DNA of 64,000 bases, taken from Cellvibrionales bacterium. GTDB taxonomy: Bacteria > Pseudomonadota > Gammaproteobacteria > Pseudomonadales > UBA7239. The notes beneath the pieces were generated by a model, which was not told where the DNA came from, ran no database searches, and saw only the letters and a list, made by a program, of their open reading frames with translations. Both the position numbers and the translations under genes were made by a program. The stretch lies in the NCBI GenBank assembly GCA_043769275.1, contig JAYVJM010000079.1:1182-65181 (forward strand). Reading direction: 5' to 3'. Positions 48,574-50,043 of this stretch are shown here, one piece after another (the stretch's first letter is position 1; the number at the start of each line of letters is the position of its first letter).

Positions 48574-50043
48574 TTATGGTTCCCATTTCTGATTAGCGCC
48601 GCCGTTGCAGGTCCAAGTCACCACATCGGCACCGTTGTTCGTGTTGCCTCCGCTGATGTCTAAGCATTTGCCATTTAATTTGCTTCTAATGGCTAAACCG
48701 TCAAAGTACCACTGTTGATTGATTGCGCCGTTACAAGTCCACATGATGACTTTACCGCCATCGCCAGCAAAGGAACCGCTGATATCCAAACACAGATTGT
48801 TTAGCTTTGACTTGATTTCCGCGCCGCTGGAATACCATTGCTGGTTTGCAGAGCCAGCCCCGCCGCAACTCCACATTTGCACAACAGTACCCGGGCTTGC
48901 GTTTACCCCGCGAACGTCTAGGCATTTGCCATTTAATTGCGACGTAATCGGCGAGTTGATAGGCACCAGTCTGTTGACGGCAATCACCGCGTTAATCAAA
49001 GAAGCCCCGGGGAAATCCGCCACAATAATGCCCACATTTTTATAGCGCATCGTGGGTATTGCGTTGGTAACTTGCAAAAGCGCGGCCGTTAATGTGTTGA
49101 TGCCCTCAAAGGCTATCGTGCAGATACCAATAAAGCAGTTAACACGTGGAAAATCAGGATAGGAGTCTTTCCATCCCGGCGTGGTGCGGCCGGTTGAAAG
49201 ACGAGCAGCGCCTGTCGCTGGCGAACTGTGCCCACTGGCAACAAAATAGGGGAATGAGCCTGTAGAGCCGCTTAAATAGTTAAGGTAAATACGGCCGTCG
49301 GTGGCAGTGGCAGCACGCTGTATATGCGCCTTCACCTTCTCCCATTTATTGTAGAGATCCCAGTTGCTGGTTAGGGCGTAATAGTCTTGCTTGTCCAGCT
49401 GATGATAGGACGTGCCGACATCCCCCGTTGGCCCGTCAGAAAACACCACGATTTTGCCCCTGACATCACCCAGCTTTGGGTTTTCTTCTCCACCAGACCA
49501 AAAATAGGCACTGTATTGTTTGTAATAAGCCAAGAAAGCGGTCTGGAATACGTTCGGCGATGGATCGTTGTTGGTTTCATTTTTAACACGCATGAAAACT
49601 ACTTCGGTCGGGTGCTGCTTCAAAAAAACCGTCACCTCATTCAGCACGCTATCAAACTTAGCCTGCTGGCTCACAATGCCATGATAAAGCTGAAGCTGGT
49701 TATTGCCGACAGATTTAAGGCGGATATCCAGAAAGCGAATGCCGGACACCAACTGCTTCGTAATCGACATACTCTGCGTTTGTGTGCTATCGCCACCGTA
49801 AAATGCGCCAGAGTCGTGTGTGCCAGGAATGGATATCTGGTTGACTTTATAACTGCCGGGGATATCACGCATCCAGTCTGCATTGGAGGCAACATTTGCA
49901 CTGTCATGAGAATAGGCGCCATCATTGTGCGCCATAGACACGCACGGTGTTGCAACCAAAAAACAGAATAACGCCAGTGATACGCCAAGCCGCTGCGCCC
50001 TATCAACGCCCGCACGGCTGTTTTTTCTCCTGAACCTCACCAT
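48574..50043 (-). CDS. secreted PI-PLC X-domain phospholipase C fused to a C-terminal ricin-B (beta-trefoil) lectin domain
   Basis: It has a signal peptide (start at MVRFRRKN.., 50043). PI-PLC catalytic motifs are ISIPGTHDSGAF and IRFLDIRL...LQLYHG. The C-terminal ~130 aa carry three QxW repeats (NQQWYSSG, NQQWYFDG, NQKWEP) with Cys pairs. Confidence 0.8.
   Translation of the reverse strand: MVRFRRKNSRAGVDRAQRLGVSLALFCFLVATPCVSMAHNDGAYSHDSANVASNADWMRDIPGSYKVNQISIPGTHDSGAFYGGDSTQTQSMSITKQLVSGIRFLDIRLKSVGNNQLQLYHGIVSQQAKFDSVLNEVTVFLKQHPTEVVFMRVKNETNNDPSPNVFQTAFLAYYKQYSAYFWSGGEENPKLGDVRGKIVVFSDGPTGDVGTSYHQLDKQDYYALTSNWDLYNKWEKVKAHIQRAATATDGRIYLNYLSGSTGSFPYFVASGHSSPATGAARLSTGRTTPGWKDSYPDFPRVNCFIGICTIAFEGINTLTAALLQVTNAIPTMRYKNVGIIVADFPGASLINAVIAVNRLVPINSPITSQLNGKCLDVRGVNASPGTVVQMWSCGGAGSANQQWYSSGAEIKSKLNNLCLDISGSFAGDGGKVIMWTCNGAINQQWYFDGLAIRSKLNGKCLDISGGNTNNGADVVTWTCNGGANQKWEP

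Follow-up and report, generated by a model that had tools for sequence, protein, structure and literature searches.

Bacterial phosphatidylinositol-specific phospholipases C (PI-PLCs), such as Listeria PlcA (Protein Data Bank, PDB, entry 1aod), the Bacillus cereus and B. thuringiensis enzymes (1ptd) and Staphylococcus aureus Plc (3v18), are exported by a signal peptide and consist of a single catalytic domain, a barrel with a common set of catalytic His, His, Arg and Asp residues in which the Arg stands in the place of a metal. The Bacillus enzyme is metal-independent, releasing diacylglycerol and forming inositol 1,2-cyclic phosphate. The gene described here, from a Cellvibrionales bacterium, encodes what is probably a Sec-exported, metal-independent PI-PLC of this bacterial type (EC 4.6.1.13 type) that carries a three-site ricin-type (CBM13-like) lectin. 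It lies at 48574..50043 on the minus strand of a 64,000-nucleotide stretch (contig JAYVJM010000079.1, assembly GCA_043769275.1, positions 1,182 to 65,181), the whole of which is termed the window. Its product shares with the classical enzymes the barrel (target-normalised template-modelling (TM) score 0.69–0.82) and the catalytic set, and its N-terminus is a predicted signal peptide, but it adds a disulfide-containing insertion of ~45 residues, an N-terminal AYSHD motif and the C-terminal lectin; its identity to them is 20–24%, and its host is Gram-negative.

The lectin has the same three-lobed QxW trefoil, likewise with one disulfide per lobe and sugar-site residues, as the CBM13 modules of the Streptomyces olivaceoviridis xylanase (1isv), Streptomyces lividans Xyn10A (1knl) and Streptomyces avermitilis (3wmy, 3a21), at a root-mean-square deviation (rmsd) of 1.3–1.4 Å and ~34% identity. 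Here, however, it is joined to a lipid phosphodiesterase rather than a glycosidase, and the stacking aromatic residue is Trp in all three lobes, where the Streptomyces modules have Tyr. The same logic of delivery by a lectin is found in the ricin and abrin B chains, the trefoil heads of Cry78Aa and Tpp80Aa, Marasmius oreades agglutinin and the Leptospira VM proteins, and lectin-targeted toxins and enzymes do occur among the Foldseek structural matches to the lectin; toxins with ricin-type B domains are also treated in PMC9002632. Toxicity is no part of this likeness: the cargo here would be a phospholipase of the membrane surface, for which no cell entry is needed, and the trefoil is single. 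A likeness by description only links the protein to the expanded extracellular PI-PLCs of the fungus Ceratocystis, which are secreted, single-domain and Listeria-like, and for which membrane damage and release of glycosylphosphatidylinositol (GPI)-anchored proteins have been proposed (PMC5773145); those enzymes are eukaryotic, and no lectin domain is reported for them in that paper. Annotated PI-PLC–Ricin B fusions, for example Oleispira antarctica RB-8 CCK75750.1, have the same architecture, with the junction at ~350–365, the insertion and a similar length, but differ from the window protein in sequence (37–46% overall identity) and in genomic context; no experimentally characterised fusion was found among these annotated homologues.

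Catalytic domain and lectin

The coding sequence specifies 489 amino acids, with its stop codon at 48574–48576, and is supported by the open reading frame (ORF), by Pfam domains and by an identical public protein. The product comprises a predicted signal peptide (residues 1–38), a PI-PLC barrel (residues 39–362; 48958..49929, minus strand) and a ricin-type/CBM13 beta-trefoil (residues 363–489; 48577..48957, minus strand), an architecture confirmed by the agreement of Pfam, sequence searches of solved structures and an AlphaFold model. The AlphaFold2 model, built on a 69-sequence alignment, has a mean predicted local distance difference test score (pLDDT) of 90.6 and a predicted TM score of 0.81, and in a Foldseek search of it PI-PLCs rank first, followed by CBM13/ricin trefoils. 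An earlier note, made from the letters of the window, had read the protein as a PI-PLC with both catalytic His contexts (IPGTHDSG, and YHG after FLDIRL) and a three-lobed QxW trefoil at the C-terminus. This molecular reading held in every test run, including the hidden Markov model searches with PF00388 and PF00652, both of which scored above their curated cut-offs.

For the catalytic domain, Pfam PI-PLC-X (PF00388) matched residues 87–201 (E 4e-12, 46.4 bits against a cut-off of 23.1), and the precomputed annotation of the identical public protein (P0001) lists the newer family PF26146 ‘PI-PLC_X’ besides PF00388. A phmmer search of the PDB recovered Listeria PlcA (1aod, E 3e-24), the S. aureus enzyme (3v18, 7.5e-22) and the Bacillus 1ptd group (~1e-17); by structure, 1aod was matched at E 2.2e-19 with a target-normalised TM of 0.82, and the Bacillus and S. 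aureus enzymes at 0.69–0.73. The key residues are H76 and D77 (IPGTHD), R108 (FLDIR), H121 (LYHG), K154, R195, D220 and D343 (VADFPG). HMMER alignments place IPGTHDSG opposite IPGSHDSG in S. aureus and IPGTHDT in Listeria, FLDIR opposite FFDIR/YIDIR, LYHG opposite VHHG/IYHG, MRVKNE opposite MSMKKD, and VRGKIVVF on the (R/K)GKI(V/L)L strand, so that both His contexts fall on the catalytic His residues of the Listeria and S. aureus enzymes. IIVADFPG, with D343, aligns with the Asp of Listeria ILIMDFPE, a segment that scores weakly by itself. Through alignment with the S. aureus chain, the residues would correspond to Bacillus His32/Asp33, Arg69, His82 and Lys115.

In Bacillus PI-PLC the catalytic histidines, His32 and His82, pair with Asp33 and Asp274, and mutant entries in the PDB (H32A, H82A, D274S, R163K and D198E) mark recognised functional residues of the enzyme. 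Conservation among 69 family members is close to complete, at 68/68 for H76, 61/68 for D77, 69/69 for each of R108, H121, R195 and D343, and 67/69 for D220; neither catalytic His is lost on alignment, and the same pattern recurs in 148 representatives. A reading of the protein as a pseudo-enzyme is ruled out, all catalytic residues being conserved in the 69-member alignment. The Arg at position 108 is the residue changed to Asp in the study of the role of calcium named by PDB entry 1t6m, and its invariance fits a metal-independent mechanism, because in calcium-dependent phospholipases C the position of this Arg is taken by Ca2+ ligands.

Evidence for the lectin is of the same kind. Pfam Ricin_B_lectin (PF00652) covers residues 366–487 (E 3.6e-28, 98.7 bits, cut-off 29), RicinB_lectin_2 (PF14200) scores 85.2 bits (E 5e-24, cut-off 25.6) and NCBIfam lectin_2 127.9 bits (cut-off 100). 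Matches in the PDB are to CBM13 modules of Streptomyces enzymes (down to 2.4e-25) and to ricin-family B chains, and the model superposes on 1knl with an rmsd of 1.3 Å over 128 columns (target-normalised TM 0.91), which bears out the modelling of the C-terminus as a trefoil. Three lobes of ~40 residues, closed by QQW, QQW and QKW, are visible as shifted, self-consistent alignments of the domain with itself. Lobe alpha carries CLDV, QMW and NQQW with the Cys pair 374/393, lobe beta CLDI, IMW and NQQW with the pair 418/437, and lobe gamma CLDI, VTW and NQKW with the pair 460/479; in each, a Trp stands two residues ahead of the second Cys. Position by position, these motifs line up with the sugar sites in the CBM13 modules of Streptomyces xylanase and arabinofuranosidase, the Asp of CLD, the aromatic residue and the Asn-Gln being presumably ligand contacts, as in ricin B and CBM13 structures. 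All three sugar sites look competent by these motifs. Among CBM13 modules and R-type lectins the ligands range over galactose, lactose, xylose, arabinose and other sugars, a variety also seen in the titles of the liganded PDB entries matched by this lectin.

Export and the insertion after strand VII

The signal peptide (residues 1–38; 49930..50043, minus strand) is predicted from the hydropathy profile, a helix in the model and a family consensus. It has a basic n-region (R3, R5, R6, K7, R10, R15 and R18) and a hydrophobic core at residues 19–34, with a cleavage motif, S-M-A before H39, predicted by a hydropathy and motif heuristic; in the model a helix at residues 13–31, of low pLDDT, precedes the folded domain. 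Family-wide, an A-x-A-H consensus occupies the same position, just before the conserved AYSHD motif. The N-terminus thus read is typical of the Sec/signal-peptidase I pattern, and by these features exit from the cytoplasm is likely. The description of the enzyme as secreted in the earlier note stands to that extent, passage across the outer membrane being a presumed further step that a Sec-type signal peptide does not cover. A lipoprotein lipobox is ruled out, since Pro precedes Cys34. Export by the twin-arginine translocation (Tat) route through the FRRK stretch is unlikely: the stretch lies 12 residues ahead of the hydrophobic core and misfits the Tat consensus, S/T-R-R-x-F-L-K. The Cys pairs 374/393, 418/437, 460/479 and 303/308 would form four disulfides, which fits folding outside the cytoplasm.

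The last of these pairs lies in an insertion specific to the subfamily (residues 262–330; 49054..49260, minus strand), delimited by a gap in the Listeria alignment, by conserved columns and by the model, in which it falls between barrel strands VII (253–256) and VIII (339–342). It spans 66 residues where Listeria PlcA has 21 (query 264–330 against chain 238–259), and its sequence, GSFPYFVASGHSSP...RVNCFIGICTIAFEG, includes the pair C303–C308. Few parts of the family are as well conserved as this segment, whose pattern is GSFPYFVASGHSSP...TGxTTPGW..YPDFPRVxCFIGICTIAFEG.N and whose Cys pair is kept in 68/69 sequences. The segment is modelled, at pLDDT 80–97, as a helix, three short strands (283–288, 300–304 and 307–311) and a long helix at 315–328. 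The active-site face of TIM-barrel enzymes is built from the loops behind the strands, and the one behind strand VII of Bacillus PI-PLC is its rim loop, which inserts into the membrane. By analogy with this loop topology and with the role of the Bacillus loop, the insertion would sit on the active-site rim and probably remodels interfacial or head-group recognition.

Such an insertion raises the question of whether PI and GPI are the main substrates at all. The main substrate might be another inositol phosphodiester, whose glycan head group the insertion and the lectin would read together: inositol phosphoceramides and glycosyl-inositol-phosphoceramides from fungi, algae and plants are candidates, as are bacterial (Bacteroidota, Actinobacteria) inositol lipids. 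The conserved, disulfide-containing 66 residues on the substrate-facing side of the barrel, in place of the 21-residue Listeria segment, speak for this, as do partner domains that are overwhelmingly glycan binders and the position of the subfamily, which is without a characterised or solved member (none is in the PDB, where the best identity is 24%). Against it, the residues aligned with those that contact inositol and phosphate in classical enzymes (H76, D77, R108, K154, R195, D220 and D343) are all conserved, which argues for the same head-group chemistry, and nothing specific favours ceramide over diacylglycerol lipids; we consider it unlikely. Equally doubtful is a related proposal, that the subfamily marked by the GSFPYFVASGHSSP...C-x4-C-TIAFEG insertion forms a distinct enzyme class preferring glycosylated inositol lipids, either GPI cores or algal, fungal or plant glycosyl-inositol-phosphoceramides, with the insertion and the swappable partners reading the glycan.

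The preferred reading remains that of a PI-PLC acting on phosphatidylinositol (PI) and its relatives, and the following course can be proposed. Cleavage at SMA/H39 would yield a mature protein of 451 residues, with its four disulfides formed in the periplasm, and release from the cell would probably follow. The lectin would then dock the enzyme on the eukaryotic glycocalyx, on cell-wall or detrital polysaccharide, or possibly on the GPI glycan, raising its concentration at the membrane, where the barrel would cut PI, lyso-PI and perhaps GPI anchors at the glycerol–phosphate bond. The general base would be H76, together with D343, and the general acid H121, while R108 would stabilise the phosphate and replace the metal ion; the products would be diacylglycerol and inositol 1,2-cyclic phosphate, or freed GPI-anchored proteins. 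The disulfide-containing insertion would widen the rim after strand VII, at the place where classical enzymes carry a membrane-binding loop.

Several points weigh against this scheme. Identity to characterised PI-PLCs is 20–24% only, the large rim insertion could alter substrate specificity, and a search of the literature found no biochemical data for any member of the subfamily. Listeria PlcA, the best structural match, is reported to act poorly on GPI anchors (PMC5773145), so that GPI cleavage cannot be assumed. No secretion-system genes, type II included, were found within the 64-kb window, and the local genomic context offers no functional hint. What is said here of substrate range, sugar specificity and biological target we infer from the likenesses described.

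Genomic surroundings

The extent of the gene given in the earlier note (48574–50043) is correct by the ORF, by the position of a Shine-Dalgarno sequence and by public gene calls, in which the product is likewise 489 amino acids long with 100% identity and coverage. The longest ORF reaches a TTG at 50058, which overlaps the Shine-Dalgarno sequence, GGAGG, read at 50051..50055 on the minus strand; because GGAGG lies 7 nt 5′ of the ATG at 50043, the ATG is preferred as start. The note had also put the non-coding flanks at 400 and 238 nt, and these measure 401 nt (48173–48573, towards the outer-membrane efflux gene at 46886–48172) and 238 nt (50044..50281, no strand). The latter is a divergent intergenic region and presumably holds the promoter region shared with the gene for a TonB-dependent copper receptor. 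A promoter scan of these 238 nt found no match to the sigma-70 consensus, and a terminator scan found no canonical terminator directly 3′ of the stop codon, a single terminator-like hairpin lying at 48220–48203, just before the efflux gene; on the result of these scans monocistronic transcription is likely. Neither spacer matched Rfam at E ≤ 1.

Upstream and divergent, the gene at 50282–52366 encodes the copper receptor (TIGR01778 equivalog, 715 bits against a cut-off of 472), beyond which follow cmoB, cmoA, genes for a zinc-ribbon protein and a cytochrome P450, fpg, rpmG/rpmB and polA. Downstream on the same strand is a three-gene heavy-metal efflux system of the CzcCBA/Ihp type, in the resistance-nodulation-division class, made up of IhpA-like and IhpB-like proteins (both under curated cut-offs) and a CusA/CzcA protein (1512 bits), with a deazaflavin-dependent oxidoreductase of the nitroreductase family beyond it. 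By neighbour annotation the note is right to place the gene by itself, with a metal efflux operon on one side and a copper receptor on the other. Elsewhere the window carries housekeeping genes (hflX, hflK, cytochrome b, a PBP5-type carboxypeptidase, queG and glycosyltransferases). Several metagenome contigs carry an identical protein, with identical neighbourhoods in 4/4 contigs compared; the gene order around DNA polymerase I in the two nearest relatives with long contigs (72–73% identity) is unrelated to that of the window. The DNA polymerase I encoded in the window shares 72–74% identity with its counterparts in metagenome-assembled genomes assigned to Pseudomonadales or Cellvibrionales, and 63–64% with those of named genera such as Alkalimarinus, Ketobacter and Marinobacter. 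A functional link to the copper and metal genes was rejected as coincidental, the association being absent in 4 other genomes. Composition gives no sign of recent horizontal transfer: the GC content of the gene (0.50, z = −1.0) and that at third codon positions (0.56, z = −0.14) lie within the range of the 44 other window ORFs.

A protein of the periplasm or cell surface that serves the cell's own envelope or signalling, and is no exoenzyme directed at other organisms, might also carry only an evident Sec-type signal peptide and be flanked by envelope metal-transport genes, in a window where type II secretion genes were not found. A trivalent lectin would have no obvious ligand in the periplasm, however, the metal-gene neighbours are not shared by the other genomes compared, and Gammaproteobacteria are not known to make inositol lipids; related Gram-positive enzymes, moreover, are extracellular (PMC5773145). 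Such a role is highly improbable.

The 401-nt downstream spacer contains a 44-nt palindrome (48384..48427, minus strand) like the repetitive extragenic palindromic (REP) elements. Of its 15-nt core, CCGTTCGCnnTGAGC, the window has 6 copies where 0.15 would be expected, and the 91-nt context of the palindrome folds at −31.1 kcal/mol (z = −2.45); it is possibly a hairpin at the mRNA end or a stabiliser. A repeat copy had been noted in this spacer. The shared core supports that in part, but the longer consensus of the dispersed repeat is unmatched by the palindrome within 3 mismatches, and it is a loose relative rather than a strict copy.

Dispersed REP-like palindromes with the core CCGTTCGCnnTGAGC lie at 34565, 35874, 40880, 41953, 46811, 48413 and 62310, mostly in intergenic positions. 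The copy at 46811–46835, CCGTTCGTCCTGAGCCTGTCGAAGG, falls inside the 5′ end of the efflux adaptor ORF (45838–46881, minus strand), where it translates as ...VRPEPVEGLSKAS...; because the repeat lies there and the family match begins at residue 72 only, the true start of the adaptor is probably the downstream Met42, which leaves the repeat intergenic. Inverted repeats of 59 nt (35809–35867 and 41986–42044, 75% complementary) flank a segment of ~6.1 kb encoding a PMT_2-like membrane glycosyltransferase, a GT2, methyltransferases, a GtrA-like protein and a GT4, which may be a glycosylation module of cassette type with the repeats as its limits. A 1304-amino-acid ORF at 26643–30557 (minus strand) has thrombospondin type-3 calcium-binding repeats (E 2.6e-55) and DUF5122 beta-propeller repeats, and includes, at 26888–27553, five in-register copies of a 222-nt unit at 111-nt spacing, that is, a 111-nt tandem array; its product is probably a large, secreted or surface, adhesin-like protein. 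The cytochrome P450 (PF00067; 55425–56765, plus strand) lies close to cmoA/cmoB, and a 558-amino-acid protein at 6272–7948 (minus strand) weakly resembles GH17 (29.4 bits, cut-off 28.2); the two may be relevant to how the bacterium lives.

Distribution, partner domains and biological role

Searched with HMMER against 1.84 billion representatives, the catalytic domain gave 5791 matches at E ≤ 1e-3 and 489 at E ≤ 1e-30, the 50%-identity clusters at the latter threshold being taken as the subfamily. Partner domains were counted by Pfam among the best 148 representatives, of which 57 are stand-alone enzymes of ≤400 amino acids. The ricin-type lectin is the commonest partner (~19/148), followed by PKD (7), beta/gamma-crystallin or I36 modules (5), and Cry1Ac domain V, mucin-binding and Exo_endo_phos domains (3 each), with single cases of discoidin (F5/8 type C), hemopexin, B-lectin, PAN, the StcE beta-sandwich, dermatopontin, dockerin, choline-binding repeats and others. 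That the same catalytic core is joined to many interchangeable modules, most of which bind glycans or surfaces, speaks for a C-terminal module that serves in targeting. The catalytic domain is also found embedded in very large multidomain proteins (P0354, 2508 amino acids; P0391, 2721; P0371, 1409), the first two of which were left out of the Pfam census, and in P0259, P0260 and P0375 it is C-terminal, at residues ~575–920.

A scan of the species representatives of a genome collection yielded 159 relatives. Ricin fusions are carried by Oleispira antarctica, Pseudomonas sp. HK3, Bacterioplanoides, Lysobacteraceae, Noviluteimonas, Aeromonas jandaei, Enterobacter kobei, Chimaeribacter, Dryocola, Viridibacillus, Bacillus thuringiensis plasmids, Amycolatopsis and Lentzea, and are labelled in databases ‘1-phosphatidylinositol phosphodiesterase’ or ‘PI-PLC domain-containing protein’. 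In nearly all of these carriers the domain junction falls at residue 350–365, and identity to the window protein is 40–54% in the catalytic domain, 25–45% in the lectin and 37–46% overall, the nearest relative being ~43% and the Oleispira antarctica RB-8 orthologue 41% identical. Judged by these identities the window protein is a divergent member of the group, and its architecture is not new; the rarity implied by the earlier note does not stand, the fusion being widespread and machine-annotated already. One old fusion and several fusion events fit the data alike. Among stand-alone relatives are those of animal-associated bacteria (Endozoicomonas, Kistimonas, Parachlamydiales, bee-associated Paenibacillus, Streptococcus suis, Providencia and Vibrio) and of free-living ones (Calothrix, Methylomonas and Duganella). 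No paper on a PI-PLC–ricin fusion was found in the literature searched, which included a CBM13 survey (PMC11212257) and the Ceratocystis paper (PMC5773145).

Gene contexts elsewhere are varied. On B. thuringiensis plasmid CP016195.1 the fusion gene (ANN35658.1) follows the gene for a binary-toxin B component that itself bears a ricin lectin, and in Aeromonas jandaei (CP046270.1) it lies between insertion sequences and a type VI secretion system (T6SS) cluster, hcp-vgrG-DUF4123-lipase. In Oleispira (GCA_002632135.1) it stands between genes for a 324-amino-acid ricin-lectin protein and a 580-amino-acid Exo_endo_phos protein, adjoining an IS3-type transposase, a locus that looks like a small island of lectin-linked exoenzymes; a second PI-PLC paralogue, without a lectin, lies ~17 kb away on the same contig. 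The Enterobacter kobei gene stands by itself, inserted between iclR and aceK.

It is likely that the enzyme acts outside the cell on inositol lipids derived from eukaryotes. Inositol lipids are not strictly eukaryotic, being made also by Actinobacteria, Bacteroidota and myxobacteria. The earlier note had taken the protein for an effector against eukaryotes, and this role is plausible by analogy, because some homologues adjoin toxin genes; toxin and effector neighbours in some homologues and the many host-associated carriers favour it. No such neighbour occurs in this genome, however: no toxin, effector or secretion gene was linked to the gene here, where the neighbours (the copper receptor, the CzcCBA-type efflux system and cmoA/cmoB) serve housekeeping and metal homeostasis, and the lectin is most like the CBM13 of saprophytic glycoside hydrolases.

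The same features would suit a saprophytic scavenging exoenzyme, anchored by its CBM13-like module to algal or detrital polysaccharide or glycoprotein, that would draw its carbon and phosphorus, as diacylglycerol and inositol phosphate, from the membranes of dead eukaryotes and would not attack living cells. In its favour are the closest solved relatives of the lectin, the CBM13 modules of a Streptomyces xylanase, arabinofuranosidase and arabinopyranosidase (all enzymes of saprophytes), the uncultured Pseudomonadales/Cellvibrionales lineage of the host, the neighbourhood just described and many free-living carriers, such as Oleispira, Lysobacteraceae, Methylomonas and Calothrix. The homologues beside the binary-toxin B gene of the B. 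thuringiensis plasmid and the T6SS effector genes of Aeromonas tell against it, as do the many animal-associated carriers, including Endozoicomonas, Kistimonas, Paenibacillus bee pathogens, Streptococcus suis and Parachlamydiales. As a full account of the protein, scavenging is quite possible, if short of probable; between use against live hosts or grazers and use on eukaryotic debris the balance is roughly even, and the two roles are compatible with each other.

The gene alone challenges no current view. Through the census, however, one PI-PLC core is seen recombined with many glycan- and surface-binding modules across bacteria, in a subfamily that is large and biochemically unexplored and that could yield GPI-releasing reagents or PI-PLCs for oil degumming. 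Were the subfamily to prove a class of its own with a preference for glycosylated inositol lipids, its members would be modular ‘glycolipid-anchor shaving’ enzymes deployed by environmental bacteria against eukaryotic surfaces. If the enzyme of the window is active, an uncultured environmental gammaproteobacterium would join the organisms that strip inositol lipids or GPI-anchored proteins from the surfaces of eukaryotes.

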